Shown in pieces: positions 1-61,046 of a stretch of 64,000 nucleotides of DNA (positions are counted from its first letter, which is position 1; the number at the start of each line of letters is the position of its first letter). The notes below the pieces were generated by a model. It searched no databases. It worked only from the letters and a program-made list of their open reading frames with translations, and was not told the DNA's origin. A program made the translations under genes and the position numbers. This DNA is from Cetorhinus maximus (lineage: Eukaryota): positions 84,320,001-84,384,000 of the forward strand of contig NC_135897.1 of assembly GCF_964194155.1 (NCBI RefSeq). The letters are read 5' to 3'.

Positions 1-540
1 ATGTGGCTTGAGAGGGCTACCATCACTGCCACCACCACCCCGCTCCCTAATCCCCCGCTTCCTGCAAGGTATGTTAGGTTAATGGCCTATTGAGGTCAAA
101 TGTCAAAGGCTTGCCCCCCCGAGATGTCTGGGAATAGGCCAGCTGCCTGGAGGCAGCCTCCTGGCTGCAGGCTGGAAGCCAACACTCCAGGCAAGCTTGG
201 AGGCCCTCTCCACCCCCCCCCCCACTCAAACAATCTGCCTGGCCATATTTGCATTTGCAAGTCATTCTGTAAGAGAGGTTTCCTCTTTCACAATGGTGCC
301 CCCGGCTGCTGAGGAACTCTTTGTCTCTCTCTTAGCTTAACTGCAGGCTGCTGGTCTTTCCGAGCTGGAGCGGCTTCTACTTGCGCTCACCTTTGAGAAC
401 CTACTGAGCCTGCCCTTGGACTACTGATTGACCAATTGGGGAAAAATTACTGCTGGGTGACTATTTCTCGCACACTCTGGGATCGGGGCCCCCATTTGAC
501 CCTTGCATGGGGTCCCAACCCAAAATGCGAAATCCTGCCC
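1..540. mobile_element. Partial non-autonomous DNA transposon (Harbinger-like MITE), cut by window edge
   Basis: GC-rich non-coding block ending AAATCCTGCCC at 540, matching the terminus type of the element at 51348-52426 (GGGCAGAATT...AAATCCTGGCCC). Confidence 0.45.
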
Positions 541-1248
541 TGGAACTGGACAATCTTAGAGATTTTTTAGCGGTTTTTAAGCCGGGGAAAAGTTACCGGG
601 GTAGGGGTACAGAAAAGGCCTCCGATAGGGTGGAGGGAAGACTGGTTAAATGCTAAAAAGGTATAATGGTACAAGTGATGGTGAGGAAGCTCCTTTACTA
701 ATGATTTCCCTCCCTCCAGTGTAAATATGATTAACTGAAGCCTTAAAAATTGAAGGGATTAATTACAGACAGCTGCCACTAATAGTACCCGGTGTATTGG
801 TTTTTAATGAGTGAAGATTGCTTCTCCACCCATGGCCTAGTTAAAAGGGGAAAAAGAAGAAAACGATGAATTTGAGTCAAAGTTATAGATTTGGCAAACT
901 GCCCCCTCACCTACTCCAATTCTTAACTTGTACTCCCTGAAGAACCATGTTAAGTGAAGAAACACGGTGAACAATGCCAGAACTTTGCCCATCCAAAACA
1001 CGAGACCTCCAACAATGCACAAACAAAGCCTAAAGCTATTTATTGCACATTTTAAAAACTGTAGGCAGAAAATGTAGTGATTATTCTCTTCAAAGAAATT
1101 GCCTTTAGCCATTAATTCATTTGTTTATCCTTTGGCACCCTCAGTTTTTATTTTAAACATGTATTTAGTCATAAGATCTACCCCAGCATTTCAGTGATGG
1201 ATAATTTGAAACATGCAGCAGAAGAGCTTGCGTTTATGCAGCCCCTTT

Positions 1249-1503
1249 CTGAAAAAAAGGCACACGCTGTTGAAGTTTTGTGTTTTGGACTCCTCAGGAC
1301 AGAATCGTAAGAATACCAAATCTCAAAGGCAGCAACAATTTATACTGCATGAGAGGAGGGTGCTGGTTGTCACTTGGCAGCCCACTAGCACTCTCCTCTT
1401 ATGCAGTATAAATTGTTGATCTCTTCGAGATTTGGCATTCTTGCGATTCTGTCCTGGTGAGTGCAAGACACAAAGCTTTGTCAGCGCGTCTCTTTTTTTT
1501 CAG
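1249..1503. repeat. Fold-back palindromic element (~120-bp arms); each arm ends in a degenerate hammerhead motif (family 2)
   Basis: 1249-1370 is the reverse complement of 1381-1503. The right arm has TGTC-CTGGTGA-GTGCAAGAC-ACAA-AGCTT-T-GTCA at 1450-1483. A related copy lies at 52874-53175. Confidence 0.8.
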
Positions 1504-2274
1504 CACGACAGTCCCTTTCATATTCTGCTTTGCAAACCAATGAATTAATTTTTGTTGAGCGGTCGCTGTTTTGGAGCTAAATTCAGCAGCCACACTGCAC
1601 ACAGTGAGACCCGAAGAGCAGCAGAGAAATGAATGAGGTGAATTATAAGTTAATTTGTTTTTGTGTTGGATGAGGGACCCGTGTAACTCAGGATACTGGG
1701 GAGAACTCTCCTTTTCTTTGGGTAGTAGAATTCTTGGCATCCACTCGTAGCTGGTAACAGGGGAGCTTTAGTTTTAATGCCTCATCCGAAGGAAATATCA
1801 GTTTAGACGATGCACTCAAATTGCTGAAACCTACCAACTTCCGCTTCAGAGGTGGGTGTGCTAAACCAGCCTGCCTCTTTTTTTTTTTGCAAGATGACTC
1901 ATTTTGCTTGTTACTTTTACTTCCAAACCCAACCCACCATCGATGCCCCCTTGGCCTAATAAATAACCCCATTCTATACAACCATTCAAAGTATCATCAC
2001 AGCATTGGGTACGTGCAAATTATACCTGATGCTCAAAAAATAAGGAAAAAAAGAGACAAGCTGGGAGATACTTGATTCTCAAGCGGATGTCCTGGCCATA
2101 GTTATAATCATTCCTCCAATCAAATCTCAATTAAACTCAAGTTTAATTAAATAATATATATAAAAATATAATTCCATATAGCACGTAATACATGAATAAC
2201 ATAGGACCACAGTTAGGACTCATTGCATGAATTAAACTCTTTCATAGGTGACAAACCAGATATAAAAATCTTTT

Positions 2275-2464
2275 ACAAAAACAGAAATACCTGGAAAAAC
2301 TCAGCAGGTCTGGCAGCATCGGCGAAGAAGAGCAAAGTCCTCATGAGGACTCGAAACGTCAACTTTGCTCTTCTTCGCCGATGCTGCCAGACCTGCTGAA
2401 TTTTTCCAGGTATTTCTGTTTTTGTTTTGGATTTCCAGCATCCGCAGTTTTTTGTTTTTATCTC
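2275..2464 (+). mobile_element. Short Penelope-like element derivative (inverted plus direct pseudo-LTR end)
   Basis: Matches the 3' terminus of the PLE at 14430-14573; inverted arm 2275-2338; exact 14-bp TSD TATAAAAATCTTTT at 2261-2274 and 2465-2478. Confidence 0.9.
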
Positions 2465-2767
2465 TATAAAAATCTTTTGTCGCGAGTGCAGTCTCAGCAC
2501 TTTGCGAATTTTCTTTCGTCAAAACAAGTTTTCTCATATCGGTTCACCTGGCCTTGTCGACTTGGAGAAGCCATGCAATTTATAAAAGCCCCAAAGTAAG
2601 AATGTTGTAAATATTGTTTCTTTTTCTCTTTCGCAGCTTATTTGTCAAGAAAATTGTGGCATTGCGGTAAAAGCTCCTTGTGAAATTTGGTGTGATGGGT
2701 TTTGAGGCGACTGCTTCATTTCAGCTTTGGAGAAAAAGATAGCGGAATGCGCAGGCGAACGTCCATT

Positions 2768-3766
2768 TTAATCGCACAATGTTAAGTTGGTCTCGTTTCT
2801 CCCCTCCTCATCCTCACTTTTCTCCTGGCGTTTGGCCCGTTTGGTTGATCCAAACGTTTCTGTGATTTTTGACCGGAATGATTTGCAGAGGTAGAAATAC
2901 AAAATGGGGTCCAAACAAAGATTGAGAACAGCCAAGAGGAAGGTGGATTCCTTTGCATAAAACAGGGATCGTTGTACAGTGCAGTCTCTCGCTGGCTTGT
3001 ATTGACTAAGCGTGTATGGAGTCCGAACAATGTGATATGGGACGAAACAAATTATGTAGATGCCAGTCAGTATGAAAACGTGCCTCAGAGTTTGCTGTGC
3101 GTCTTTCTGCGTTTCTCTGTCCTTGTTTTCGTACAGTTTTTTCGCCACAAGGAAGTTGGAGGTTAGGAGCATCACTGAAACATTCATAAATATTGCAATG
3201 CAGATAAAATTGGTAAGGACATGCCAGTGCAGCCCCAGTGTAATCTTGATCTCTGCACACTTTAGAAGAGGCTTTGGTTCTATGCTTTTGATGGGGATTG
3301 CCATGTTTGGCACCATCAACAGCAGGACCATTCCCCATATTACAACAGACATCATTTTTGCAAAGCCTGGTTCCTGAATTCGTTGGAACCTTGAGTTTCC
3401 TGAGAGTTGAATGTATCGATCTATGCTCACAAAGCCCAGGAATATAATCGATGAGTACATATTAACGTAGATGAGGCATGCTGTGACCTGGCAGTGAAAG
3501 ACCATCAAACCCCATGGAGCAATGCCCAAGTCAACAGCTATTTTGAAAGGCAGAGCCAAACTCAGCAGAAAATCGGCAGTCAGCAGGTTCAGTAGGTAGA
3601 TGTTGAGGCATTTTCTGGCTTTCCTTTGGCTAATAAATGCCCAAAGTGCTACGCAACTCCCAATAATGCCAATCAGGAAGATTAAATAATAAAAATAAGT
3701 GAAAGCTTCCATATTGTTATTGCTTGTACACTCTGCACTGGAGCTGTTAGATGGTGTAGAGCTCAT
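2768..3766 (-). CDS. GPR171: G protein-coupled receptor 171-like, 332 aa, single coding exon
   Basis: Seven TM segments with LNLLTADFLLSLALPFKI, CQVTACLIYVNMY, SIDRY, CFVPYHIVRTPY and KESTFLLAVLNLCLDPILY, as in GPR171. First in-frame ATG is at 3766 (the ORF-track start 3781 is TTG). Position next to P2Y14-like genes matches known synteny. Confidence 0.92.
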   Translation of the reverse strand: MSSTPSNSSSAECTSNNNMEAFTYFYYLIFLIGIIGSCVALWAFISQRKARKCLNIYLLNLLTADFLLSLALPFKIAVDLGIAPWGLMVFHCQVTACLIYVNMYSSIIFLGFVSIDRYIQLSGNSRFQRIQEPGFAKMMSVVIWGMVLLLMVPNMAIPIKSIEPKPLLKCAEIKITLGLHWHVLTNFICIAIFMNVSVMLLTSNFLVAKKLYENKDRETQKDAQQTLRHVFILTGIYIICFVPYHIVRTPYTLSQYKPARDCTVQRSLFYAKESTFLLAVLNLCLDPILYFYLCKSFRSKITETFGSTKRAKRQEKSEDEEGRNETNLTLCD

Positions 3767-6520: not shown

Positions 6521-6668
6521 AAGCACAACTTGTTGAAGGATCATGAGGACTCAAAATGTCAACTGTGCTCTTCTCCACCGATGCTGCCGTACCTGCTGAG
6601 TTTTTCCAGGTATTTCTGTTTCTGTTTTTGTTTTGGATTTCCAGCATCCGCAGTTCTTTGCTTTTATA
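6521..6668 (+). mobile_element. PLE pseudo-LTR 3'-end fragment with decayed hammerhead motif
   Basis: TGTTGAAGGATCATGAGGACTCAAAATGTCAAC...TTTTTCCAGGTATTTCTG...CCAGCATCCGCAG; same family as 14430-14573. Confidence 0.85.
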
Positions 6669-6955
6669 TCAATAGCTGGTTAGTGCCAGCAGCTCTCCAG
6701 TGTCTCACACGTGTGGTCATTCTTTCCGTGTGAGCCTAGAGAATGAATATTGATCAGCAAGGTGTTTGATCTACGGCTGGCATTGTAACCATGTCCAATA
6801 GTGTTCTCAGTCAACGTCCAAACAGGGCTATCAGGAACACCAAGATTATTTTTTACATCCTCTATTTTTAAATCCTACCACCACGCCAACCTATTTGTAT
6901 AATGACTGATACTTTGGTTAAGAACAGTTAATCCCATACAGGAGTTATGACTGAT

Positions 6956-7058
6956 CAGTTCTGATGAAGAGTCATACGGACTCAAAACGTTAGCTCTGTC
7001 TTCCTCTCCACAGATGCTGCCAGACCTGCTGAGTTTTTCCAGCTACTTTTGTTTCTGT
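6956..7058 (+). mobile_element. PLE pseudo-LTR fragment with hammerhead motif (canonical CTGATGA)
   Basis: CAGTT-CTGATGA-A-GAGTC-ATACG-GACTC-AAAAC-GTT-AGCT at 6956-6995, followed by the family body. Confidence 0.85.
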
Positions 7059-7074
7059 TAACTCCATACAGGGA

Positions 7075-7781: not shown

Positions 7782-10700
7782 TTTTTAAAATTCATTCACG
7801 GGGTGTGGACTTCGCGACCTGGGCCAGCATTTATTGCCCATTCCTAGTTGACCTTGAGAAGGTGGTGGTGTGCTGCCTTCTTGAACCACTGCAGTCCATG
7901 TGGTGTGGGTACACCCACAGTGCTGTTAGGAGAGCTCCGGGACTTTGACCCAGCGACAGTGAAGGAACGGTGATATATTTCCAAGTCAAGATGGTGAGTG
8001 ACTTGGAGAGGAACTTTCAGGTGGTGGTGTTCCCATCTGTCTACTGCCATTGTCCTTCTAGATGGTAGTGGTTGTAGGTTTGGAAGGTGCTGTCAAAGGA
8101 GCCTTGGTGAATTCCTGCAGTGCATCTTGTAGATGGTACGCACTGCTGCTATTGTGCGTTGGTCGTGGAGGGAGTGAATGTTTGTGGATGTGGTGCCAAT
8201 CAAGCGGGCTGCTTTGTCCTGGATGGTGTCCAGCTTCTTGAGTGCTGTGGGAGCTGCACTCATCCAAGCAAGTGGGGAGTATTCCATCACACTCCTGACT
8301 TGTGCCTTGTGCCAGGCTTTGTGGAGTCAGTAGCTGAGTTACTTGTTGCACGACTCCTAGCCTCTGACCTGTTTTTGTAGGCACAGTATTTATATGGCTA
8401 GTCCAGTTCAGTTTCTGGTCAATGGTAACCCCCAGGATGATGATAGTGGGGGATTCAGTGATGGTAATGCCATTGAACATCAAGGGGCAATGGTTGGATT
8501 CTCTCTTGTTGGAGATGGTCATTGCCTGACACTTGCGTGGTGAGAATGTTACTTACCACTTATCAGCCCGAGCCTGGATATTGTCCAGGTCTTGCTGCAT
8601 TTGGACATGAACTGCTTCAGTATCCGAGGAGTTGCGAATGGTGCTGAACATTGTGCAATCATCAGCAAACATCCCCACTTCTGACCTTATGATGGAATGA
8701 AGGTCATTGATGAAGCAGCTGAAGATGGTTGGGCCAAGGACACTACCCTGAGGAACTCCTGCAGTGATGTCCTGGAGCTGAGATGACTGACCTCCAACCA
8801 CCACAACCATCTTCCTTTGTGATAGGTATGACTCCAACCAGTGGAGAGTTTTCCCCCTGATTCCCGTTGACTCCAGTTTTGCTAGGGTTCCTTGATGCCA
8901 CACTTGTCAGCGAGCAGGTTATGGCTAGGCAAGTGCCGCACGATAATACTGTTGCTGCCCTCTTCCATTACTTTACTGATGATGGAGAGTAGACTGATGG
9001 GGTGGTAATTGGCCGGGTTAGATTTGTCCTGCTTTTTATGTACAAGACATATCTGGGTAATTTTCCATATAGTCTGGTGTTGTAGTTGTACTGGAACAGC
9101 TTGGCTAGGGGCGCGGCAAGTTCTGGAGCACAAGTCTTCAGTACTAATGCCAGAATATTGTCAGGGCCCATAACCTTTGCAGTATCCAGTGCCTTCAGCC
9201 ATTTCTTGATATCATGCGGAGTGAATCGAATTGGCTGAAGACTGGCATCTGTGTTGCTGGGGGCCTCCGGAGGAGGCTGAGTTGGATTATCCACTCGGCA
9301 CGTCTGGCTGAAGATTGTAGCAAATGCTTCAGCCTCACCTTTTGCACTGCTGTGCTGGGCTCCTCCATCATTGAGGATGGGGATATTTATGGAGCCTCCA
9401 ACTCCAGTGAGTTGTTTAATTGTCCACCACCATTCACGACAAGATGTGGCAGGACTGCAGAGCTTAGATCTGATCCGTTGGTTGTGGGATCGCTTAGCCC
9501 TGTCTATCACTTGCTGCTTATGTTGTTTGGCACGCAAGTAGTCCTGTGTTGTAGCTTCACCAGGTTGACACCTCATTTTCAGGTATGCCTGGTCCTGCCC
9601 CACTCTTTATTGAACCAGGGTTGATTCCCTGGCTTGATGGTAATGGTAGAGTGGGGGACATGCTGGGCCATGAGGTTACAGATTGTGTTCGAGTACAATT
9701 CTGCTGCTGCTGCTGATGGTCCACAGCATCTCATGGATACCCAGTCTTGAGTTGCTAGATCTGTTCGAAATCTATCCCATTTAAAATGGTGGTAGTGCCA
9801 CACAACAGAATGGGCGTTATCCTCAATGTGAACCATAGAAAAGTTACAGCACAGAAGGAGGCCATTCGGCCCATCTTGTGGTGGGACTTCGTTCCCACAA
9901 CGTCTGTGCGGTGGTCATTCCTACCGATACTGTCATGGATGCATCTTCAGCAGGCAGGTTTGTGAGGATGAGGTCAAGTATGTTTTCCCCCTTGTTGGTT
10001 CCTGCCGTTTACCCAGTCTAGCAGCTATGTCCTTTAGGACTCGGCCAGCTTGGTCAGTAGCGGTGCTATCGAGCCACTCTTGGTGATGGACGTTCAGCAG
10101 GAGGTTTCCTTGCCCATGTTTTTCCTAATGCCATGAGGCTTCATGGGGTCCGGAATTGATGTTGAGGACTCCAACGCAACTCCCTCCCGACTGTAAACCA
10201 CTGTGCCAGGCCTGTCGTGCCAGTGGGACAGGACGTACCCAGGGATGGTGATAGTCGTGTCTGGGACATTATCTGTAAGATATGATTCCGTAAGGATGAC
10301 TATGTCTGCTGACCAGTCTGTGAGACAGCTCTCCCAATTTTGGCACAGATATTCGTAAGGAGGACCTTAAGCAGGGCCGACAGGGCTGAGTTTGCCATTG
10401 TCGTTTCCGGTGCCTCGGCCGATGCTGGGTGGTCTGTCCAGTTTCATTCCTTTTTTGTGACTTTGTGGCGGTTTGTTACAACTGAAAGGCTTGTTAGGCC
10501 ATTTAAGAGTCAACCACATTGCTGTGGGTCTGGAGTCATGTGTAGGCCAGACCAGGTAAGGACAGCAGATTTCCTTCCCTAAAGGACATTAATGAATCAG
10601 ATGGGTTTTTACAACAGTCGACAATGGTTTCACAGTCATCATTAGACTTTTAATTCCAGATTTTTTTTTATTGAATTCAAATTCCACCATCTGCCGTGGC

Positions 10701-10786
10701 AGGATTCAAACCTGGCGTTAATGGTGTTACCCTGGGTCTCTGGATTACCAGTCCAGCGACGATATCACTACACTACCACCTCCTCC
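7782..10786 (-). mobile_element. CR1-group LINE (APE + RT, disrupted) with a tRNA-like 5' head
   Basis: Fragments in order: APE remnant near 10200-10400 (DIVILTESYL..TITIPGY), NPANYHPISLLS, GVPQGSVLGP, MFADD, MEYSPLAW; 3' tail at 7782-7860; tRNA-like A/B-box head at ~10690-10786. Confidence 0.9.
9833..9880 (-). mobile_element. Tiny CR1 3'-tail insertion within the LINE
   Basis: CATAGAAAAGTTACAGCACAGAAGGAGGCCATTCGGCCCATC matches the CR1 tails at ~19397 and ~41492. Confidence 0.7.
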
Positions 10787-11572: not shown

Positions 11573-14052
11573 CGTCGCATTCTGAGATCCACACTCAGTG
11601 CCATGCGCCGCCATATGAACACACTCGACCTCTCCCTCCAGCAGCACCGCCGCACCCTTTTTCAAAGCTGCGCGTGCCCCCAGTTTCATTTTATTCTTCG
11701 CCTCATCCGTCGCCTCAACAAGAAACTTTTTCTCTTTCTCTCAAGTGCTAAGGAACGCAAACTCCAACAACTCATCGACTCCAACACCCATCTGGGACCC
11801 TCCACCCCTGCTTGTCCCTCCGTCCTCACCCCATCTTCCAATCCCAGCCCCAGCCGCGTATTCACTATACCCCCTGACCTTCCCCTCTCCGATGCTGAAC
11901 GTTCAGTGCTCAGCAAAGGACTTAGTTTCATACCCTTACGCCCTCATCTCAATGAATTTCGGGCTCGGCATGATGCTGAACTCTTCTTCCGCCGTCTTCG
12001 TCTCCGTGCTCACTTCTTTGGGCAGGAGTCCTCTCCCCGTTCAACGGATCCTTTTACCCACCTCCAATATTCTCCCTCCACTTGGACCCCTCCCTCTGGA
12101 TTCTTACCTTCTCTTGATCTTTTCATTGAGAACTGTCGGCGTGACATTAGCCGTCTCAATTTCTCTGCTCCTCTCACCCATTCTAATCTGTCTCTCTCTG
12201 AACTCACTGCACTCCGTTCTCTCAGGTCCAACCCCAACATTGTCATCAAACCCGCTGACAAGGGTGGTACTGTTGTTGTCTGGCGCATTGACCTCTACCT
12301 CGCGGAGGCTGAGCGTCAACTCGCAGACGTTTCTTCCTACCTCTCCCTGGACCATGACCTCACCACAGAACATCAAGCCATTGTTTCCAGGACTGTCACT
12401 GACCTCATCTCCTCTGGAGATCTTCATCCCACAGCTTCCAACTTGGAAGTCGCCCAACCTCGGACGGCCCGCTTCTACCTCCTACCCAAAATCCACAAAC
12501 AGAACTGTCCTGGCAGACCGATCGTGTCAGCCTGTTCCTGCCCCACGGAACTCATTTCTCGTTATCTTGACTCCCTTCTCTCTCCCCTTGTCCAGTCCCT
12601 TCCCACCTACATCCGTGATTCCTCTGACACCTTACGTCACATCAACAATTTCCAGTTCCCTGGCCCCAACCGCTTCCTCTTCACCATGGATGTCCAATCC
12701 CTCTACACCTCCATCCCCCACCAGGATGGTCTGAGGGCCCTTAGCTTCTTCCTTGAACAGAGGCCCCAACAATCCCCATCCACCACTACTCTCCTCCGTC
12801 TGGCTGAACTTGTTCTCACACTGAACAATTTCTCCTTTAACTCCTCTCACTTCCTCCAAATAAAAGGTGTGGCTATGGGTACCCGCATGGGCTCCAGCTA
12901 TGCCTGTCTCTTTATGGGGTATGTGGAACATTCCTTGTTCCAGTCCTACTCCGGCCCCCTCCCACAACTCTTTCTCCGGTACATCGATGATTAAACTTCG
13001 GTGCTGCTTCATGCTCTCGTCGGGACCTGGAAAAATTTATTAATTTTGCTTCCAATCTCCACCCCTCCATCATCTTCACATGGTCCATCTCTGACACTTC
13101 TCTTCCCTTCCTTGACCTCTCTGTCTCAATTTCTGATGACAGACTGTCCACCAATATCCATTACAAGCCTACCGACTCCCACAGCTACCTCGACTACAGC
13201 TCCTCACACCCCGCTTCCTGTAAAGACTCCATCCCATTCTCTCAGTTCCTTCGCCTCCGTCGCATCTGTTCTGATGACGCTACCTTCAAAAACAGCTCCT
13301 CTGACATGTCCTCCTTCTTCCTTAACCGAGGTTTTCCACCCACGGTCGTTGACAGGGCCCTCAACCGTGTCCGGCCCATATCCCGCGCATCCTCCCTCAC
13401 GCCTTCTCCTCCTTCCCAGAAACATGATAGGGTCCCCCTTGTCCTCACTTATCACCCCACCAGCCTCCGCATTCAAAGGATCATCCTCCGCCATTTCCGC
13501 CAACTCCAGCATGATGCCACCACCAAACACATCTTCCCTTCACCCCCCCTGACGGCATTCCGTAGGGATCGTTCCCGCCGGGAAACCCTGGTCCACTCCT
13601 CCATCACCCCGTACTCCTCAACCCCCACTTATGGCACCTCCCCATGCCCACGCAGAAGATGCAACACCTGCCCCTTCACTTCCTCTCTCCTCACCGTCCA
13701 AGGGCCCAAACACTCCTTTCAAGTGAAGCAGCATTTCACTTGCATTTCCCCTAACTTAGTCTACTGCATTCGTTGCTCCCAATGCGGTCTCCTCTACATT
13801 GGAGAGACCAAACGCAAACTGGGCGACCGTTTTGCGGAACACCTGCGGTCTGTCCGCAAGAAAGACCCAAACCTCCCTGTCGCTTGCCATTTTAACACTC
13901 CACCCTGTTCTCTTGCCCACATGTCTGTCCTTGGCTTGCTGCATTGTTCCAGTGAAGCCCAACGCAAACTGGAGGAACAGCACCTCATCTTCCGACTAGG
14001 CACTTTACAGCCCTCCGGGCTGAATATTGAATTCAACAACTTTAGATCTTAA
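11573..14052 (+). pseudogene. PLE RT-GIY-YIG polyprotein interrupted by a single frameshift
   Basis: ORF 11522-12994 stops right after YIDD (GAT GAT TAA ACT TCG GT). Removing 2 nt restores YIDDYFGAAS and an open frame running into ORF 13306-14052. Confidence 0.9.
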
Positions 14053-14427: not shown

Positions 14428-14468
14428 CAGTTCTGCCGAAGGGCCATGAAGGCTCGAAACGTTAACTG
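14428..14468 (+). ncRNA. Minimal type-I hammerhead ribozyme motif in the PLE pseudo-LTR (core variant)
   Basis: Stem I CAGTT/AACTG; core CTGCCGA-A; stem II GGGCC-ATGAA-GGCTC; GAAAC-GTT with palindromic ACGT stem III. Confidence 0.75.
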
Positions 14469-14662
14469 ATTTCTTCTCCGCCGATGCTGCCAGACTTGCT
14501 GAGTTTTTCCAGGTAATTCTGTTTTTGTTTTGGATTTCCAGCATCCGCAGTAGCTTTTAGCTTTTTGTTTTTATCTGGTAAGATTGTAGTTGGCCCTATA
14601 AGAGATATAAACATTTCACGCGGGTCCCAAAATCAAAGGGATGTTTTGGAAGGTAAAGATAA

Positions 14663-16148: not shown

Positions 16149-17165
16149 ATAATTAATTGAAATTTCTGTCTGGAGCATCCCAAGTACTCCATGTTGCTAT
16201 AAAAATAGGCTGTGCAGAAAGGTACTCTTTTTGGGGGTTTTATCTCTGTGATTTCTGACAGAAAGGTCAGTTGCATCCTGGAGAAGGCAGAGAATCTTTA
16301 CAGAGCTGTAAAGCAGCTGAAACTTTAGCATAGGGCTATCAGAGACCAAGGCTGTTTTCTGATTTAAAGCCACTAAGCAAGAATGAGAGTGAGGCCCATG
16401 CTCGAGCTGGGGAACCCACAATTGTCAGGTAGTGAAGGAGAGTTGTTGGGGTGCCTAGTCTTATGCTAGTGGATAGACCCCAAGAAATCTCATAGCCAAG
16501 AGAATAGTGGGAACGCTGAGGAGAACCAAAGTGAATTAGTGAGAGCTATGGCATACCTTGGTTTGGCCTCAGGAGAAGTCAATTAACCCTCAAGGCCCTG
16601 CAAGGTATAGGGGAACTCTTGGGTGGAAGTAGGGGTTTAAATTAAAAATGTTTATGTTCTGAGATTTTCGGATTTAAAACATAAGTAATCACAAATTATA
16701 GTTTTAGTTTAGTAGTGTTTAATGTTTAACTCTTGTGCTGTAAAGGTTTTGATTAAAAAATATGCAATTGTGTAGTATAATTCTTTCATTAAATATCTAG
16801 CATTTCGAATTGCTGTTTCTACAGAGATTATAACAATTGTACCTTGTAATTTTCATGCTGTAAAGTTGTGAATCTCCTAACTTACCTTGAGCAATACTAT
16901 GGCAAACCTGTGTTTTGTTTATACTAAAAAGAGCAGGGAGAGAATGGATAACAGGCATAAATGTCTGCATTTACTGTCTTATGCGTGGTGTAGACTCAGC
17001 AACGTGAGTGATTCCAAAATCGTCTTGTGGTTGTCTTCCGGAGATGCAGGTTACTGATGTTGGATTGGAGTTTTAGTGTCATGTGAAATGGATTGATTAA
17101 AAATTGTAATGTGCTTTAAATGTCAAATAGGATATTTGCCTACCTGAGCAGATCTGAATGTGTGT

Positions 17166-17370
17166 ATAAAAGCAAAAAAAACTGCGGCTGCTGGAAATCC
17201 AAAACAAAAATAAAAATACCTGGAAAAACTCAACAGGTCTGGCAGCATCTGCGGAGAGGACCACAGTTAACGTCTTGAGTCCGAATGACTCTTCAACAGA
17301 ACTTCTGTTGAAGAGTCATACGGACTTGAAACGTTAACTGTGTTCCTCTCCACAGATGCTGCCAGACCTG
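17166..17370 (-). mobile_element. Fold-back PLE pseudo-LTR derivative with hammerhead motifs on both arms
   Basis: Palindrome centred at 17302; CTGTTGA-A-GAGTC-ATACG-GACTT-GAAAC-GTT-AACTG at 17305-17340; 12-bp TSD CTGAATGTGTGT at 17154-17165 and 17371-17382. Confidence 0.9.
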
Positions 17371-17684
17371 CTGAATGTGTGTGTGTTCTATTTCATTTCT
17401 CATGGTAAAGTACTAGAATGTGAATTTCAACACTGTAGCAGTTTAAATTTGCTCATCAAGCTCGTGATAGAATCTCAGAAAGTTTGCTTTAAGGTTGTCC
17501 ATGCATCTTAAGCTTTCTGTTTTTATTCCTTCTTGGTACCTAGTCTTTCTCATCTCCTAACCTTCAAGCACTTGGGAAGATGTTTTCCTCACATGGCGAA
17601 CACTATGGAAATGCAAATTGTATATTTTCCATTCTTCTTTCTTTATCAGACACCATTCCAGGTGGAGAGCAGGGGGAGAGACAA

Positions 17685-19394: not shown

Positions 19395-19775
19395 AATCAT
19401 AGAATGGCCACAGCTCAGAAGGAGGCCATTTGGCCCATTGTGCCTATGCTGGCTCCCTGCTAGAGCAACTCGCCTAATCCCACTTGGCTTTTCCATGTAG
19501 CCCTGCAAATTTTTTCTCTTTAGATAAGCATCCAATTCCCTTTCGAAGTCTTCGATTGAATCTGCCTCCTTAACACTCTCTGGCAGCATATTTTAGATCC
19601 TAACCACCTGTTGTGTTTAAACAAGAAGTTTCTCCCCATGTCATCATTGCTTCTTTTGCCAAAGACCTTAAATCGGTGTTCTCTGGTTCTTGATCATTCT
19701 GCAAATGGAAACAGTTTCTCCCTGCCTATTGTGTTCAGAGCTATCATGGTCTTGAATAAGTCTATCAAACCTCCT
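19395..19775 (-). mobile_element. CR1 LINE 3' fragment
   Basis: LPESVKEADSIEDFERELDAYL followed by a CR1 3' UTR hairpin and ATTCTATGAT tail. Confidence 0.85.
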
Positions 19776-20240: not shown

Positions 20241-21332
20241 TGGTTACAAGATACCTTCTCATGTTCATGTGAAAAGCACATGACTCCTGGATCTTAATCC
20301 AAGTCCTGACCTGTTTCATAGCTTTAAATATATCTTGATCAATGCATTTAATTTGGCTGGTTTTATTTCCAATTTTAGTAGAGGTTATACACAATGCAGG
20401 AGAGAGAAAGTGAGCACATCTTCAACTGTGTCTCCCTGTTGGAATTCTGCACTCTGCATGGATTCCATCTGGTGCTCCACCCTCTTACCCCACCTATTAC
20501 AAGTGCGATCCCACCTATTACAAGTGAGAAGGCTGAGACCAAGTGTGTAAAAGTAGCTAGGAGTGACTTACTATCAGATTTACATATCTTGACATTTAAT
20601 TTTTGTCCTTCCTCTTTCTCGATAATGCTTTCCATCAGGAAATGTATTGCTGTCAGGCAGTGCTGTGATACCATCTGTTTGCATTGCTTATCTCTTTAAT
20701 CTGCACTGCCAAGGTAAATTAGAATTGCGGTGTGGAAGTTGTAAACATCATCCCACCACTATGATGCAGCCTCTCGGAAACACATCCTTTTTATCGTGAT
20801 AAGTTTCACAAGTAAACAGGAAAATGCCAATCATCTTGAAATAGAAAATTTCTCCGTAATGAACCATTTGATAACTCATCATCAAAATCACCTTTTACTT
20901 CTGGTCCTAAGATATTGGGGTTTTTTGACTGACTGTCCAGAGTTTTTCTCATGATACTAATTGTTTTGCAGAAATCTCTTGAGGGATCTTATCTCAGTTG
21001 GTGCGTTTTCAATTATCGAGAGAATTTTCTTTTCCCACTTAATTTTTAACTGAATTTTGGCATATGATATCCGTTAAATCTGAGATAAAGTGTATGAAAC
21101 TCTTTTTATCTGATGACCAATGCCAGTTTCCCATTTGTTTCAATTTTGCTTCATTATAAATGTGCCAAACTATTTCAGTGCCAATTAAATGTTAAATTTT
21201 AAGAGTATACAAAATGCTCTTTTATGGAGGTTGACAGTGGATACGGAGTCAAGATCTCTGAAAAACATTTAAGAGGAGATTTAAGATGGGAAATGCAGCA
21301 AAAGATATTAAGCAAGCCTGGCATCATTAGAG

Positions 21333-21456
21333 GGGAGACTGTGGCATAGTGGTATTGTCACTGGACAAGTGTTCCAGAAGACCAAGGGTAATGCTCTGGG
21401 TACCTGGGTTCAAATCCCACCACGGCAGATGTTGAAATTTGAATTCAATAAAAAAA
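21333..21456 (+). mobile_element. tRNA-derived SINE head
   Basis: A box TGGCATAGTGG and B box GGTTCAAATCC; same family as 25040-25416. Confidence 0.8.
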
Positions 21457-24864: not shown

Positions 24865-25460
24865 GTGGGGGAGCCATCCCTGGCAACCTGGCCAATATTT
24901 ATCTCCCAATGAACATCACAATAACAGATTACTTGGCTATTTTCATATAATTGTTTGAGAGCCTGCTGTGTCCAATTGGCTGCCAAGTTTCCTACATTAC
25001 AACAGTGACGACACTTATGTCATTGGTGACTTTTGTGGCAAGATGGTAGCGTAGTGGTAATGTCCCTGGACTGGCAATCCAGGGACCCAGGCTAATGCCC
25101 TGAGGACATGGGTTCAAATCCCACCACAGCAGCTGGCAGAATTTGAATTCAGTTAAAATATCTGGAATATAAAGCTTGTATCAGTAATGATGACTATGAA
25201 ATTACATTCGATTGTCATAAAAACCTATCTGGTACACTAATGTTCTTTAGGGAAGGAAATCTGCCACCCTTACCTGGTTTGACCTACATGTGACTCCAGG
25301 CCTTAACTGTCCTCTGAAATGGCCTAGCCAGCAACTCAGTTTAAGGGCAATTAGGAATGGGCAACAAATGCTGGCCTTGCCAGCGACACCCACATCCCAT
25401 GAAAGAATTTAAAAAATGTTGGGACTTCCTGAGGTCACGAAATGTGCTATATATATGTAT
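24865..25460 (+). mobile_element. Deu-domain SINE-like element, interrupted by a younger SINE
   Basis: CCTGGCCAATATTTATC...CAATTGGCTGCC..TTTCCTACATTACAACAGTGAC body; the tail GGGACTTCCTGAGGTCACGAAATGTGCTATAT resumes after 25416. Confidence 0.65.
25040..25416 (+). mobile_element. Full-length tRNA-derived SINE with a LINE-derived 3' tail
   Basis: A box TAGCGTAGTGG, stem CTGGA-7nt-TCCAG, B box GGTTCAAATCC; tail AAGGGCAATTAGG...CCCACATCCCATGAA shared with the LINE ends at 26265-26338 and 7782-7856. Confidence 0.9.
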
Positions 25461-25570
25461 ATTTTAATTTGTTTTAATTCCTCTCAGTTAATTTTAAATA
25501 ACAACAGAAAGATTCAATTTAATGAAGTACAACAGAGACAGGGCCTCAAAAGTACATTATTGCTGTGAAA

Positions 25571-26338
25571 TATTCAGGCTTGGGCTGATAAGTAGCAAGT
25601 AAATTTAGCACTACACAATGACCATCTCCAACAAGATTGAATTTAACCATCTCCCCTTGACATTCAATGCCATTACCATCACTGAATTTCCCACTATCAA
25701 CATCCTGGAGATTACCATTGACCAGAAACTGAACTGGACTAGCCATACTGTGCCTTCAACATCAAGTCAGAAGCTGGGAATTCCCCTGACTCCCCAGAGC
25801 CTGTCCACCATCTACAAGGCACAAATTAGGAGTGTGATGGAACACTCTCCACTTGTCTGGATGTAGTCCAACAACACTCAAGAAGCTCGACACCATCCAG
25901 GACAAAGCAGCCTGCTTGATCGGCACCCCATCCACCACCTTAAATATTCACTCCCTCCACCACCAACACACAGTAGCAGCAGTGTGTACCATCTACAAGA
26001 TGCACTGCTGCAACTCACCTTCGATAACATCTTCCAAACCCATGACCTATACCGCTTAGAAGGGCAAGAGCAGCAGATGCATGGGAACACCACCACCTGC
26101 AAGTCCCCCTCCAAGTCAAACATCATGCTGACTTAGAACTATATCAACGTTCCTTCACTGTCGCTGATTCAAAAACCTGGAACTCCCTTGCTAACAGCAC
26201 TGTGAGTCTTCCTACAATACATGGACTGCAGTGGTTCAAGAAGACAGCACAGCACCACTTTCTAAAGGGCAATTAGGGATGGGCAATAAATGATGGCCTA
26301 GTCGACGACACCCACATCCCATGAATGAATTTTAAAAA
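25571..26338 (+). mobile_element. 3' fragment of the same CR1-group LINE family as 7782-10786
   Basis: ITIDQKLNWTSH, TIYKAQIRSVMEHSPLVWM, KKLDTIQDKAACLIG and the family 3' tail. Confidence 0.9.
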
Positions 26339-28565: not shown

Positions 28566-30108
28566 TAGGACAAATACACAGGAAGAAATAAATGGGGTGT
28601 GTAAGGAAGGTACTACAATAATCATGGGTGACTTTAACCTACATATAGATTGGATGAATCAGATTGGCAAAGGTAGCCTTGGAAATGAGTTGATAGACTG
28701 TATTCGGAACAACTTCTTAGTATGTTGAATGCTAACCAGGGAGCAGGCTAAGCTAGACTTGGTAATGTGCAATGAGACAGGATTAATTAATAATCTCATA
28801 GTAAAGGAGCCTCAAGGTGACAGTGATCATGACATGGTTGAATTTCACAGTCAGTTTGAAGATGAAACGTGTGGGCCCAAGGCTAGTGTTTTAAACCTAA
28901 ATAAAGGTAATTATAAGGATGTGAAGGCAGAGTTAGCTGAATTGAGCTGGCAAACTAAGTTAAAAAGTAGTAGAGTTGCAGTAGTTGAAACTTAAGGAAA
29001 TACTTAATAACTCTAAGCAAAGATTTATCCAAGTGAGGAAGAAAGACTCTTTGAGAAGGATCTATCATCTGTAGCTAAACAAGAAAGTTGAAGATAGTAT
29101 CAACTTCAAAGAAACACTCTACAAATTTGTGAAGATTAGTGGCAGGTGAGAAGATTGGTCAGATTAAGAACCAACAAAGAATGCCAAAAAAAATGGGGGA
29201 GAAATTAGAGTATGAGAGAAAGCTAGCGAGAAATATTAAAAAAAAATACCCAGAGTTTCTACAAGTATTTAAAAAAGAAATGAGTAGCTAAAGTGAGTGT
29301 TGGTCCTCTCGAGAGTGAATCTGGGGAATTAGTAATGAAAAACAAGCAAACAGCAGCAGTGGTGAACAGGTCTTTTGTGTTTGTCTTCACTGAAGAAGAC
29401 CTGGAAAACTTTCCAAAGACACTTGAAAATCAAGGGGTGAAAATGGGGCATTGGGGTTGGGGGGACTTAAAGCAATCGCCATCACCAGGGAAAAGGTACT
29501 GAGAAAACTATCAGACCTAAAGTCTGACAAGTCCTCAGAACCTGATGGCCTGCATCCAAGGGTTTTAAAAGAAATGGCTGCAGAGATAGTAGAGGCATTG
29601 GTTATAATCTTCCAAACTTGCTCAGATTCTGGAAAGGCCCCAGCAGATTGGAAAATAGCAAATGTAACACTTTTATTCAAGAAAGGAGAGAGACAGAAAG
29701 CAGGAAACTATAGGCCAATTAGCCTAATACCTGTCATAGGGAAATTGCTAGAATCCACTATCAAGGAGGTTATAGCAGGCTACTTAGAAAATTACAACCT
29801 GATCAGACAGTGTCAACATGGGAAATCCTGTTTCACTAATTTATTGGAGTTCTTTGAGGAAGCAACAAGTGAGGTGGATAAAGGGGAACCTGTAGATGTG
29901 GTGTACTTGGATTTCCAAAAGGCATTTGTTAAGTTGCCACATCGAAGGTCACTACACAAAATAAGAGTTCATGGTGTAAGGGGGTAATATAGCATGGCTA
30001 AAAGGACCAGTTAGCTAACAGGAAGCAGAAAGTGGGGATAAATGAGTCATTTTCAGGTTGGCAAGCTACATCTAGTGGAGTGTCACAGGGATCAGTGCTG
30101 GGTCCTCA

Positions 30109-33100
30109 TAAAAGTATAAAAGTAGGCTATCTTTTAGTTTTGATTTTGTCTGCACTGGGGATTGCCGTCTTTGGCTGCAGTTGAGTGCAGTTGGAGTTTG
30201 GCGACTGAGGGAGTTCAAGGGTTAAACTCTATCTAAAGTCTAGTCTTTAATTTAGCAATTAACTAAAAGTTGCTGTTAGGGTTGGAAGAAGGTGAGTTTT
30301 AGTCCAACCTTAAAGCAGGGCTCATACAGGCTCTGCTTGCAGCTTGCAGTTAGATAACTGGCTTAATCGGAGGCTAGTTTCAGAGAGTATAAAAGTAGAC
30401 TATCTTATAGTGCTGACTTTGTCTGCCCTGAAGTGCTGTTTTTGGCTGCAGTTGGGTGCTTCAGTTGGAGTTTGGCGACTGAGGGAGTTTGGTGAGGAGG
30501 GAGGAGGTGTTTCTCTTTCTTTTCCTACCGTTCCTCAGAAAGAAGAGCAGCGGCCTTGGTAAGTAGGAACTGGTGAGTAAACCAGAACAGCATAATGTTT
30601 TTAAACAAGTAGCTATACTTGCATTTAACTGAGAAGCACCAGGAATAAGGGGAATTTAAGGCCAATATAATAAAGTAATATAAATAATCCAAAGTAGGAA
30701 AGAGTTAACGCAAGGGAAGTAGAGTAAAGACTTGGCAGGGCAGCTCAGTCGAGTGGAATGCATGTCCTGTAATATGTGCAAAGCCATGGATGCTACCGGT
30801 GTCCTAGGTGACCACATGTGCAGGAAGTGCTGTCAGTTGCAGAAACTTGAGCTCCAGGTTTCAGAGCTCGAGCAGCGGCTGGAGTCACAGTGGTGCATCT
30901 GCGATGCTGAGAGCTATGTGGATAGCATGCTCAGAAATGTGGTCACACCACAGCTTAAGGGCCTCGAGACAAAGGGAATGGGTGACTACCAGGCTGTCCA
31001 AGAGAAGTAGGCAGGTAGTGCAGGAGTCCCCTGGGGTCCCGCTCACAAATCGGTTTTCTGTTTTGGAAGCTGATGAGGGCTCTGGTTCCTCAGAGGAGTG
31101 CAGTCAGAGCCAGGTTTGTGGCACTGCGAGCAGCTTGGCTGTACAGGAGGGGAGGAAGAAGAAAGAGAGAGCTATAGTGATAGGGGATTAATTGATTAGG
31201 GGAACAGACAGGCATTTATGTGGCCATAGATGTGACTCCAGGATGGTATGTTACCTCCCTGGTGCCAGGGTCAAGGATGTCACAGAGCGGCTGCAGGACA
31301 TTCTTCTGGGGGAGGGTGATCAGCCAGAAGTCGTGGTCCACATTGGCACCAGTGACTTCGGTAGGAAGGGGGTTGTAGTCCTGCTATCAGAATTTAGGGA
31401 GCTAGGTAGAAAATTAACAAGCAGGACTCAAATGTAGTAATCTTCGGATTACTTCCAGTGACACGTGCCAGCGAATACAGAAATAGGAGGATAAGGCAGA
31501 TGAATGCGTGGCTGGAAAGATGGTGCAGGAAGGAGGGCTTTAAGTTCCTGGGACACTGGGAGTGACTCTGGGGGAGATGGCACCTGTACAAGCCGGAAAG
31601 GTTACACCTGAACAGAGCTGGGACTGAGTTCCTTGTGGGGCGTTTTGCTAGTGCTGTTGGGAGGGCTTTAAACTAACTCGGCAGGGGTGTGGGAACCAAG
31701 AGAAAATACTAGGGATGAATACCAGGGTGCACAAAATACTGGGAGGGAGAGATAGCGCTAGTATAGAGAACAGTAAATTAATAGGTAAAGTCGGGGCAAG
31801 GGAGAAAGTAATAAAATCTAAATCAGGGTTACTACGCATGTATGTGAATGCACGGAGTATGGTAAATAAAGATTGGGGAGTCACAGGGACAGATTGCCAT
31901 GTAGAAATATGATGTTGTGGTGTTAACAGAGACCTGGCTTAAGGAAGGGCAGAACTGGGTGTTAAATATTCCCGGGTACAAGGTGTTCAGAAGAGATAGG
32001 AAAGGAGGAGGGGTGGTGGTATTGGTTAAGGAGAGCATTGCAGTGCTGGAGAAAGAGGATGTCCCAGAGGGTTCAAGGACAGCATTAATTTGGCTAGAGC
32101 TCAGGAACAAAAAGGGTGCAAATACATTGCTCGGTGTAGTCCATAGACTGCCAATTAGTGAGAAGGATGTAAAGGAACAAATCTGAAAGGAAATTACAGA
32201 GCGATGCAAGCATTATAGAGTAGTTATAATGGGGGAATTTAATTACCTGAATGTAGACTGGGACAGTGGTAGTGTAAAGGGTGAGGGGTGGGGGGGGAAG
32301 CATAAGTTCCTAGATTGTGTTCAGGAGAATTTTCTGCAGCAGTATGTGTCCAATCCAACAAGAAAAGAAGCACTGTTGGACCTGGTTCTTGGAAATGAGG
32401 TGGGACAAATAGACTAAGTGTCAGTGGGGGAACATTTAGGAGACAGTGATCATTGTATTGTTTTAAGATGATGATAAAAAAGGACGATGGGAAATCCAGA
32501 GTAAGAATAATTAACTGGACGAGAGCTGACTTCGATGGGGCAAGAATGGAGCTAGGCCAGATAGACTGGAATGAAAGATTGGCAGGAAAAACTGTAGTTG
32601 AACAGTGCGCTACCTTCAAAAAAGAATTGGTTTGAGCACATTCAAGGTATGTTCCATCGAAAGGGAAAGGTAGGACAAACAAATCCAGAGCTCCCTGGAT
32701 GAAAAAGGAGATTGAAATTAAGATAAAGAAGAAAAAGTGTTCTTATGACAGGTGTCAGGTAGAAAATACAATTGAGGACCAAGAGGAATACAGAAGGTTC
32801 AGAGGGGAGGTGAAAAAGCATATTAGAGAAGCAAAGAGGGATTATGAGAAAAGACTGGCAGCCAACATAAAGGGGAATGCCACCGTATAAATAGTGGTTA
32901 AAAGGAGGAATAAGGCCACTTAGGGACCGAAAAGGGAATATACACATGGACAAAGGGGCCATGGCTGATGTATTAAATGAATACTTTGCATCCGTCTTTA
33001 CCAAGGAGGTAGATGTTACCCAGGCCTTGGTGACAAACGAGGGAACTCTGTCAGTAGAAGAGTTCAAAATTGGTAAGGAGGAAGTGTTGACAAGGCACCG

Positions 33101-34789: not shown

Positions 34790-35620
34790 CGTCATGAAGA
34801 GATATGAATGTGTATAATGTTATTGGAAATTATTTTTTAAAATAAAATTCTAGTGGGGGACTGTGTCTAGGTGTGTGTCTGTGTATGTGTTAATTGGATT
34901 AAAGCCAGCTAGTCTGGGTGTTTTGATGTTTAGTAGTTTTGAGATGTTAATTGGGTGAACAGTAAGGAGAACAGTAAGGTAAAGCGTTCGTTTGCATTTG
35001 TTGAATAAACCATTCAAGGCTGCGGGTAAAATCTTGCACCTAGCTAGAAGAAGCCAAACAATGTGTTTATTTTTTTTCAGCTTACTAATAAAATTGGTGC
35101 TATGAAAGGGTTTTATTGTTAGAAGCGCAGAAGTTCAAAAGAACTAGTGATACAATGGAAAATTTACATTCAAAGGGAAAGCTAGGTACATAAAAAAAGG
35201 AATTTGTGTGTGTAAGGTAGAGGCATTTAAGACCTAACCAGCCTGTATGCCCCCAATCAACTTGCAAAGGAATTTCATTTGGAATTCGTAAGGTCAAATG
35301 TGCTTTGTCTGGTGTCTATTTAAAATCTATGGGTTACTGTTGCCTTAGTGGAGATTCACTGGGGTGATTAATTTGGGGATTTGTTAAAAAGTTATTATAG
35401 TAGTAATTTGTAGCTATGTGTATGTGTTTAATTTGTTGTTAAATTAATTAATGTTTAATTTAGTTTATTTAAAAACCACGAGACTCCGTGGTCTTATTCC
35501 TACTGAATTCAAAGTCTGCATCTCGAAATTACAAATTGCGAAAATAGATTATGACAGCTGTTTCAAGTTTCCCTCTGGGATTTGAACAACTCAGCCTATA
35601 CCATCGGCTGTGTCATAATA
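34790..35620. mobile_element. Solo LTR inserted in the outer CR1
   Basis: Inverted homologue of 14858-15709; flanks ATGT/ATAT (degenerate 4-bp TSD). Confidence 0.75.
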
Positions 35621-41344: not shown

Positions 41345-43240
41345 TTTTTAAAAAAAATATTCTTTCATGGGACATGGGCATTGCTGGAAAGATCAGCTTT
41401 TGTTGCCCATCCCTATTTACTCTTGAACTGACTGGCTTTCTAGGACATTTCAGAGGGCAGTTAAGAGTCAACCTGGAGTAACATGTAGGCTCATAGACGT
41501 TTACAGCATAGAAGGAGGCCATTCGGCCCATCATGTGTGCGCCGGTCAACAAAGACCTGACTGCATTAATCCCATTTTCCAGCGCTTAGCCCATAGGCCT
41601 GGAGACTATGGCAATGCAAGTAAATATCTAAATACTTCTTAAATGTTACGAGAGTTTCTGACTCAACCACCTTTTCAGGCAGTGAGTTCCAGACTCCCAC
41701 CACCATCTTAGCCTTCGACCTCTTACCTTAAATCTGTTCCCCTGGTTATTGGCCCCACTATAATGGAAAAAGTGCTGCCTTATCCACCCTATCTATGCCC
41801 CTCATGATCTAACATACCTCTATCAGGGCCCCTCTCAACCTTCATTGCTCCAAGGAGAACAGAAACATCTCTCTACCATCACTCTCTGCCTCCTGCCTCT
41901 CAGCCAATTTTGGATCCAACATGTCACTTTGCCTTGGATCCCATGGGCTCTAACTTTCTTGACCTGTCTGCCATGAGGGACCTTTTCAAAAGCCTTGCTA
42001 AAGTCCATGTAGACCACATCAAATGCATTACCCTCATCAACACTCCTAGTTACCTCCTCAAAAAAATTTGATCAAATTTGTCAAGCACGATCTTCCCTCA
42101 ACAAATCCGTGCTGACTATCCCTGATTAATCTATGTCTCTCCAAATGCAGATATATTCTGTCCCTCAGAATCCTTTCTAGTAACTTCCCCACTGCAGAGG
42201 TTAGACTGACTGGCCTGTAATTTCCTGGTCTGTCCCATCCTCCCTTTTTTAATAATGGGACAATGCTTGCAGTCCTCCAGTCCTCTGGCACCTCAACTGT
42301 GGCCAGAGAGGATTTGAAAATTACTGCCTGGGCCCCTGATATCGCTTCCCTTGCCTCCCTCAACAGACCGGGATACATCTCATCCGGACCTGCGGATTTA
42401 TTCACTGTTAAGGCCACCAGTACCTCCCCTCCCTCTATGTTAATTTCCTCTAATATTTCACAGTCCTCCACCCTGATGTCAATGTCTGCGTCGTCCTTTT
42501 CCATTATGAAGACCGATGCAAAGTGTCCATTGAGGACTGTACCCATGTCTTCTGGGTCCACACACAGATTACCTCTATGGTCGCTAATTGGCCCTACTCT
42601 TTCCCTAATTACTCTTTTGCTCTTTATATCTTTATTCTACTCACCAATGCTTTCTCATGCACTCTCTTAGCTTTCCTAATTTCCTTTTTAAGTTCCCCTC
42701 TGCACCCTTTATACTACTCTGCTGTATTGAGCCCTCGGCATCTGCCATAAGCTTCTCTTTTTCTCTTAATCCTAACCTTTATGTCCCTTGGCATCTAGGG
42801 TTCTCCAGCCTTGGCCCCCCCACTTTGTCTTTATGGGAACATATTTGCCCTGTACTCTTGCTATTTCCTCTTTGAATGCCTCCCACTGCTCTGACACAGT
42901 TTTATCTGCAAGTAGTTGCTCCCAGCCCACTTGAGCCAAATCGTACCCCATCTTAGTAAAATTAGCCTTTCCCCAGTTTAGAAGGGGTTCGCCAGTTGAG
43001 TAGGACTAACCAGGTAAGGATGGCATATTTCCTTTCCTAAAGGACATTAGTGAACCAGATGGGGTTTTATGAAAATTGGTGATAGCTTCATGGTCACCAT
43101 CACTGAGACTAGATTTATTAATTAATTGAATTTAAATTCCAATAATTGCCTTGGTGGGATTTGAACCCTTGTCCCCAGAGCATTAGCCAAGCTTCTAGAT
43201 TACTAGTTCAGTGATGTTACCACTATGCCACTGTCTCCCC
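41345..43240 (-). mobile_element. tRNA-derived SINE split by a CR1 insertion (tail 41345-41490, head 43001-43240)
   Basis: The two halves join to reconstruct the 25040-25416 SINE; GTAGG occurs at both junctions. Confidence 0.85.
41492..42990 (-). mobile_element. Internally deleted CR1 LINE fragment
   Basis: KSAGPDEMYPGLLREA, GNYRPVSLTS, VYMDFSKAFEKVPHGR and a CR1 3' tail at 41492. Confidence 0.9.
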
Positions 43241-60739: not shown

Positions 60740-61046
60740 ATTTTTTAGTTACCATCACTGGTTAGGCTAACGTTTATTGCCCATCCATAATTGTACTTGT
60801 TTAGAGGTCATTTCGGAGTCAACTGCATTACTGGAGTCAACATGTAGGCCAGATTAGGTAAGGACGGCAGATTTCCTTCTACTAAAGGACATTAAATGAA
60901 TCAGTTGTCACCATTAGGCTTTTAGTTCCAGATTTTTATTGAATTCAGATTTCACCATCTGCCAAGGTAGGATGTGAACCCAGGTCCCTAGAGCATTACC
61001 TCGGGCCCCTGGATTACTAGTCCAGTGATGATACCACCACCTCCCC
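60740..61046 (-). mobile_element. tRNA-derived SINE in the 5' intron of copy C
   Basis: Same family as 25040-25416; absent at the paralogous sites ~39345 and ~54347. Confidence 0.85.

Follow-up and report, generated by a model that had tools for sequence, protein, structure and literature searches.

A Zenon-type LINE of sharks and rays with a head derived from a tRNA, and a SINE composed of its two ends

Is it possible for a coding LINE to carry the internal promoter of a SINE? In the standard division, LINEs are coding elements transcribed by Pol II, and SINEs are noncoding elements transcribed by Pol III, whose heads were added to LINE tails. We examined a stretch of 64,000 nucleotides from Cetorhinus maximus (hereafter, the window), for which an earlier note, made from the letters alone, had described a LINE with a tRNA-like Pol III head and no ORF1, together with local SINEs that looked like its internal-deletion derivatives. 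Using searches of the 3.99-Gb genome and published consensuses, we asked whether this arrangement is the trait of a family, which of the two elements came first, and which polymerase transcribes the LINE.

The minus strand at window positions 7782 to 10786 is a decayed, near-full-length copy of a Zenon-type LINE, which matches nt 1 to 729, 846 to 2024, and 2159 to 3292 of the family consensus (blastn) with 92.8% identity over aligned columns. It has two internal deletions (~116 and ~134 nt) and many stop codons, indicating that this copy is dead. The family consensus, built from 40 fetched copies and the window copy (n = 41), is 3292 nt (3.29 kb) long and contains a single frame of 969 codons from stop to stop, which starts at nt 321 and has its stop codon within the tail. 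Since only 320 nt precede this frame and the longest other frame has 106 codons, the consensus is without an ORF1. The 41 copies diverge by ~7% from the consensus, and the tree of their ORFs is star-like. In open frames of sister copies, Pfam detected RVT_1 (E 3.5e-29) and, below its cut-off, Exo_endo_phos_2 (E 0.001). The nearest full-length relatives are proteins with an endonuclease (APE) and an RT that are 37 to 41% identical, one of them from Branchiostoma; the relatives carry PF03372/PF14529 and PF00078. LINE copies end in a short A-rich tract, as is the trait of Zenon elements, and 29 near-full-length copies showed no target-site duplications abutting their ends. The first 400 nt, compared by eye over that length only, match published elasmobranch Zenon consensuses. 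Judged by its sequence, the window element is a member of this known, recently named elasmobranch Zenon family of the CR1 group. The features are listed in Table 1.

Table 1. Positions of the LINE copy's parts and of related copies in the window
Feature	Position	Strand	Remark
tRNA-derived head	10692..10786	-	Rfam RF00005; Ser(AGA) nearest of 8 own-genome tRNA types, then Gln
A-box-like motif	10765..10775	-	Decayed in this copy; consensus nt 12-22
Anticodon-like arm, CTGGA/TCCAG stem, 7-nt loop	10740..10756	-	
B-box-like motif	10702..10712	-	One CpG-type change in this copy; consensus nt 76-86
Rest of 5' UTR (SINE body)	10480..10691	-	Ends at SINE left breakpoint; window copy lacks 12 nt
APE-RT reading frame, broken	7844..10475	-	Stop codon inside SINE-shared tail
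AUG behind A-rich stretch, out of APE-RT frame	10445..10447	-	Consensus nt 349
3' tail common to LINE and SINE: stem-loop and short A-rich end	7782..7857	-	
Complete SINE (head, body, and tail), old-head type	25041..25416	+	85% over SINE consensus nt 6-401
3' fragment of same LINE family	25569..26338	+	Consensus nt 2481-3292
Head-only copy	21332..21456	+	Consensus nt 2-123; source, SINE or LINE, indistinguishable
Head and body copy without tail	43000..43240	-	Consensus nt 2-242
5'-truncated SINE	41358..41473	-	With junction of nt 316 to nt 3217
Degraded SINE, head plus tail	60753..61040	-	Blurred junction

The LINE copy is surrounded by other repeats. About 50 nt inside it (9831-9880) match the end of another repeat at 41501-41537, 19395-19438, and 34600-34630 and represent a short later insertion, which may be an HE1/HER1-type tail. 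An apparently young Penelope-like element with two long frames lies directly upstream (11603-14052, plus strand; RT, Pfam E 4e-5; GIY-YIG, E 6e-5). CR1 fragments of at least two families are found at 28588-30181, 31820-34525, and 35605-36272 (plus strand) and at 41584-43131 (minus strand), and another short repeat, often inverted or paired and 80 to 94% alike, occurs at 2272-2468, 6531-6674, 6956-7061, 14428-14576, 17165-17376, 45925-46172, and 52033-52132. Among these many repeats is a cluster of rhodopsin-family receptors, presumably P2Y-like, with single-exon 7-transmembrane frames at 2768-3766, 38159-39214, 53366-53875, and 59500-60621 (minus strand; Pfam 7tm_1 in the two scanned); the last three frames are in tandem segmental duplicates of 75 to 90% identity, and one looks broken.

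The head was said to run directly into the APE coding remnant. Indeed, the part shared with SINEs stops at 10480, 112 nt ahead of the APE motif KVLLTNI with its start at 10368, leaving no room for an ORF1. The window is dense in SINE and LINE fragments, and a 3'-truncated SINE might have come to lie next to a 5'-truncated LINE at this locus by chance. However, when a 271-nt junction query was searched against the genome, all 39 non-self matches spanned the head-APE junction (40 scored of 4522 candidates) with unrelated flanks, and the identical junction is present in published consensuses of five species as given in the supplement of PMC13343379; chance neighborhood is thus scarcely credible. 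Although the head lies outside this query, 19 of the 29 non-self loci fetched with it reach the tRNA head. Using an APE-only query, we found that 20/29 non-self loci extend to consensus nt 20 or lower (19/28 after merging one duplicated pair), and that the other nine are 5'-truncated, none carrying another shared UTR. At the boundary, the truncated loci have no common flanking sequence, and the flanks of head-bearing loci are unrelated except in the duplicated pair. The APE-only loci and the unrelated flanks therefore indicate that the full-length element begins at the head, with no other UTR or ORF1 in the sample. Thus, the proposal of a true tRNA-headed LINE family without ORF1 was borne out, and the genome search for the junction suggested by the earlier note returned many copies with different surroundings. 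Neither of the two outcomes that the note had named against itself, a junction unique to this locus and full-length members with another 5' UTR and an ORF1, was encountered in the 39 junction matches and 29 APE loci. The lack of ORF1 is no special trait, since the available sections of PMC13343379 describe all Zenon elements as lacking ORF1 and as having poly-A.

The 5' ~310 bp of the LINE (10786-10480, minus strand), previously equated with the head and body of free SINEs, aligned with the copies at 25041, 43240, 61040, and 21333 at 68 to 76% in pairwise comparisons, and the A box, the CTGGA/TCCAG arm, and the B box were located as described (Table 1). Rfam matched its tRNA model to 10692-10782 with a score of 23.1 bits (E 0.02), which falls short of the gathering score (29). 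ARAGORN with default settings called no tRNA gene in the whole window, and on the family consensus it called a long-arm tRNA, with AGT in the anticodon position, at a relaxed threshold only. We take the family A box to fit the usual box consensus if CpG decay is allowed for, and the B box to fit by family majority; A and B boxes fit in an older as well as in a newer version of the head. In a donor comparison with eight tRNA isotypes of this genome, Ser(AGA) came first with 60.5 and Gln second with 52 to 53.5, in a panel that excludes Leu and that is neither complete nor blind because Ser and Gln were sought by motif. The second hairpin, which had been read as a variable arm, has a 5+7+5 shape (5-bp stem, 7-nt loop) like an anticodon arm, so that a class-I tRNA with a duplicated anticodon arm is a possible donor. 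The tRNA-Gln genes of this genome include a tandem array of ~70 genes (G000:C35:9027627-9131462), in which CTG and TTG anticodons alternate with 1.0- and 1.8-kb spacing.

When a less decayed copy (L132) was scanned at its 5' end with Rfam, no credible family and neither a ribozyme nor an IRES was matched. In the upstream regions of 45 distant relatives, no A/B-box motif was matched, and the five weak ARAGORN calls at a relaxed threshold were not credited as tRNA heads. Behind the head, 14/41 LINE copies lack 12 nt between short direct repeats (consensus nt ~275-290; window ~10505), in two forms. We considered this deletion as a marker of one subfamily and rejected it, as it is scattered over the star-like ORF tree. 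These repeats also show many other short deletions flanked by microhomologies.

The short element is composed of the LINE's 5' end and 3' end alone, a trait of SIDEs. Its consensus is LINE nt 1-316 (293/316 aligned columns) joined to nt 3217-3292, the last ~76 nt, confirming that the SINE is made of both LINE ends; accordingly, window positions 7857 to 7782 match the tail of the SINE copy at 25041-25416. With the head of that copy (25040) as a query, the match to the LINE ended at nt 317 or earlier in 30/30 loci. By its anatomy, which includes a tRNA-derived head, A and B boxes, a LINE tail, and many dispersed copies, the short element can be classified as a SINE2. The claim that free copies jump from TCAGTT to AAGGG held cleanly for the copy at 25041-25416 and also for a 5'-truncated copy that had not been listed (41358-41473), whereas the copy at 61046 is degenerate, that at 21333 is a head only, and that at 43240 stops at nt 242. 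Likewise, of the four copies presented as head plus tail, two (25040 and 61046) have both parts, but those at 21333 and 43240 are without a tail.

The SINE consensus carries the older head with an 8-nt longer stretch, which is also seen by eye in the published Squalus LINE consensuses. In pattern searches, the old head preceded the LINE junction in 57 cases, and of 25 loci that were fetched, 22 continue into the ORF; among the other three, two are head-plus-tail deletions with breakpoints 386/3133 and 365/3140, and one ends at 416. The new head was found before the SINE junction 14 times, 13 of them with a tail. Old and new heads each occurring on both elements, heads are exchanged between LINE and SINE lineages, which makes the head a part common to both. 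Outside the pattern sites, the old LINE pairs with the old SINE and the new LINE with the new SINE. Both SINEs have one common junction and one common site that both LINE versions lack, and the new-head SINE therefore looks recombinant rather than freshly deleted. Head-plus-tail derivatives with breakpoints other than 316/3217 (L348 and L355, also L074, L315, and L331) may represent additional short families or deletions in single copies.

Because of the head exchange, a deletion from a headed LINE looks the same as a LINE that took the head of its SINE. From the sequences compared, we consider that the SINE probably arose by internal deletion from the tRNA-headed LINE. In the reversed history, which seems possible but less probable, a headless Zenon would have yielded a bipartite derivative, to which a tRNA head was then added, and the LINE would afterward have acquired this head through a template switch within the body that both share. 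The addition of a head to such a derivative is the published route for Bov-tA, AfroSINE, and hagfish SINEs and is described as usual for RTE-derived SINEs (PMC5786205 and PMC7245038, as far as their relevant passages go); besides, head versions move between LINE and SINE here, and the main SINE junction is single. On the other hand, no LINE with this UTR but without the head occurred among the 29 APE-anchored loci or the seven published consensuses, additional head-plus-tail deletions with other breakpoints exist (L348 and L355), and the new head is, by eye, the form on the published galeomorph LINE consensuses. The reversed history concerns direction only and would be compatible with either Pol II or Pol III.

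In vertebrates, a run of four T's (T4) terminates Pol III. The LINE consensus contains no T4 run in its 3292 nt and only 6 T3 runs versus 21 expected from base shuffles (z -3.7), while runs of A, C, and G are normal. In the ORF, 4 TTT runs were counted versus 12.5±2.4 expected from synonymous shuffles with protein and codon usage fixed, a ratio of 0.32 with 0/1000 shuffles as low; CpG decay was rejected as an origin of the TTT codons that remain, as it fits only 1 of 4. For T4 alone, 0 versus 2.2 expected corresponds to a P of about 0.1 by synonymous shuffles and 0.01 to 0.02 by base shuffles. Two shark CR1 consensuses, constructed in the same way from 30 loci each of the families found in the window, served as controls: CR1a has 8 T4 runs in 2565 nt and CR1b has 12 in 2310 nt, with T3 at expectation in both. 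The frames of the Penelope-like element gave T3 ratios of 0.92 and 1.02. Among metagenome relatives with intact frames of at least 600 codons and no N (43 of 80 loci), the median T3 ratio was 1.02 and the minimum 0.75 versus 0.32 for the shark LINE ORF, with the reservation that these controls are poorly matched, the relatives being 22 to 38% identical and mostly AT-rich and the shark element T-poor (20%) and GC-rich.

The LINE thus shows the anatomy of a type-2 Pol III unit, as far as sequence can tell, with internal A and B boxes near its 5' end and no internal T4. The shortage of T-runs is of the kind expected under selection for read-through by Pol III and supports it indirectly. Since the element is almost free of the T-runs that stop Pol III, we lean, somewhat beyond even expectation, toward a 3.3-kb coding LINE that is transcribed by Pol III from its tRNA-derived head. 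It is also conceivable, with distinctly lower probability, that this is an ordinary Pol II Zenon LINE that recruited the tRNA piece as a 5' UTR, serving as a Pol II promoter or as RNA structure, that Pol III acts on the SINE only, and that T-runs are scarce for some other reason, for example because U-rich processing signals are selected against. Normally, coding RNAs depend on a cap, which counts for Pol II, and a 2.9-kb ORF on an uncapped RNA would require an unproven translation route; moreover, synonymous shuffles give no significance for the T4 test by itself. In the relevant part of PMC5786205, LINEs and the bipartite elements derived from them are regarded as Pol II products, and lepidopteran Zenon and Persaeus are described as spreading without a Pol III promoter (PMC6740152, in the sections at hand). 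Yet only T on the sense strand is depleted, the depletion persists when codon usage is kept fixed, and none of the controls show it; the element begins 11 nt before the A box in the manner of a SINE, and the boxes are kept in both head versions and, in the published consensuses, across sharks and a ray. RNAs made by Pol III are reported to retrotranspose without ORF1p in culture (PMC2666806, in part). Headless Zenons also lack ORF1, and hence its absence says nothing about the polymerase. Contigs of four runs (unrecorded type, four organisms) match this stretch; start, strand, and polymerase are not readable from them.

How such an RNA might be translated is a further question. The first in-frame Met is at residue 285, and no in-frame AUG precedes the APE domain. 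The out-of-frame AUG at nt 349 is kept in 31/41 copies, and in 30/41 a distance of 77 nt separates it from the APE lysine codon downstream; by eye, the published stingray Zenon consensus has the same 77 nt, and one Squalus consensus is without an AUG there. Upstream of the domain, the APE frame is basic, a feature also seen in several relatives. We favor, in analogy to dicistrovirus IRESs, a non-AUG start from a structured UTR over the rival of initiation at the out-of-frame AUG followed by a -1 shift.

On the Pol III reading, TFIIIC would bind the boxes, and Pol III would start at the head and read through 3.3 kb, the terminators presumably having been purged. The uncapped RNA would be translated via one of these two noncanonical starts, and the APE-RT protein would bind the 3' stem-loop, prime reverse transcription, and insert the copy. 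With promoter and RT-binding site at opposite ends, one deletion (nt 316 to 3217) would be sufficient to yield a complete SINE. A helix between consensus nt 283-288 and 3220-3225, which spans the SINE junction, is predicted with a pair probability of 0.84 to 0.94 in the full-length fold; it never varies and shows no covariation, and 14/41 copies, fetched with a query partly selected for the deletion, are without its 5' strand owing to the 12-nt deletion. The fold of one SINE copy is no more stable than those of shuffled sequences (z -1.19). As a lead only, this helix could place the SINE breakpoint. Taken together, we put forward, tentatively and short of an even chance, the model of an autonomous coding retrotransposon of sharks and rays that Pol III transcribes over its full length from a captured tRNA promoter and that has terminators purged from its 2.9-kb ORF, is translated without an in-frame AUG, has its 5' UTR folded onto its 3' end, and gives rise to a SINE by a single deletion at the helix. 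If a coding LINE is indeed run by Pol III, it would represent a long mRNA naturally made by Pol III, would allow cap-independent translation of such an RNA to be tested on a defined sequence, and would offer a one-step route to the birth of a SINE. Even under Pol II, the family would be a clear case of a LINE and a SINE that share and exchange a whole 5' end, which matters for the annotation of repeats in sharks and rays.

Elasmobranch Zenon consensuses (CarCar_, ScyCan_, RhiTyp_, HypSab_, and SquAca_Zenon) have been published in PMC13343379 (Genome Biol Evol 2026). By eye, all seven shark and ray Zenon consensuses in its supplement, stingray included, begin with a tRNA-like head, and three hagfish and coelacanth consensuses have no head and contain TTTT runs in the first 400 nt. 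CarCar_Zenon-1 resembles our LINE consensus nearly letter for letter over the first 400 nt, has a length of 3288 versus 3292 nt, and likewise has a single APE and RT ORF and an A-rich tail. Intact ORFs are given in that paper as 3/612 in the stingray and 1/1419 in the whale shark. The words "tRNA" and "promoter" do not occur in the main text of that paper, which names no partner SINE, and the head, the T-run depletion, and the absent in-frame AUG are not discussed in the parts available to us. In the literature searched, we found no account of a tRNA-headed Zenon or its SINE, the latter of which may be deposited in Repbase or Dfam, outside that search. What appears to be new here is therefore the tRNA-headed architecture of a named LINE family, undescribed in the literature that we found.

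Among known systems, the Persaeus SIDE of lepidopteran CR1-Zenon (PMC6740152, in the sections at hand) resembles the shark SINE in having both ends of a Zenon LINE and an internal deletion. However, Persaeus is described as having no tRNA homology or Pol III promoter, whereas the shared 5' end of the shark SINE is a tRNA-derived head, for which reason the shark derivative is a SINE2 by anatomy. CmiSINEs and SacSINE1 of cartilaginous fishes (PMC5499810, compared by description alone and in part) are also tRNA-headed, but they contain CORE or Deu domains, end in an L2 tail, and have no more than the 3' end in common with their LINE. Further context is found in portions of PMC11481361 and PMC3531059. 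RTE-1_DAn and elements related to it are mentioned as LINEs containing a tRNA-like sequence that matches many SINE2 elements (PMC5786205); this is a one-line precedent from the RTE clade, and the passage is silent on position, promoter function, and partner SINE. Known tRNA-headed bipartite SINEs, as far as the sources at hand describe them, are like the shark SINE in combining a tRNA head, a piece of a LINE 5' UTR, and a LINE 3' end. In those SINEs, the head was added after the deletion and is missing from the LINE (RTE or Vingi), whereas in the shark the head is on the autonomous CR1-group LINE itself.
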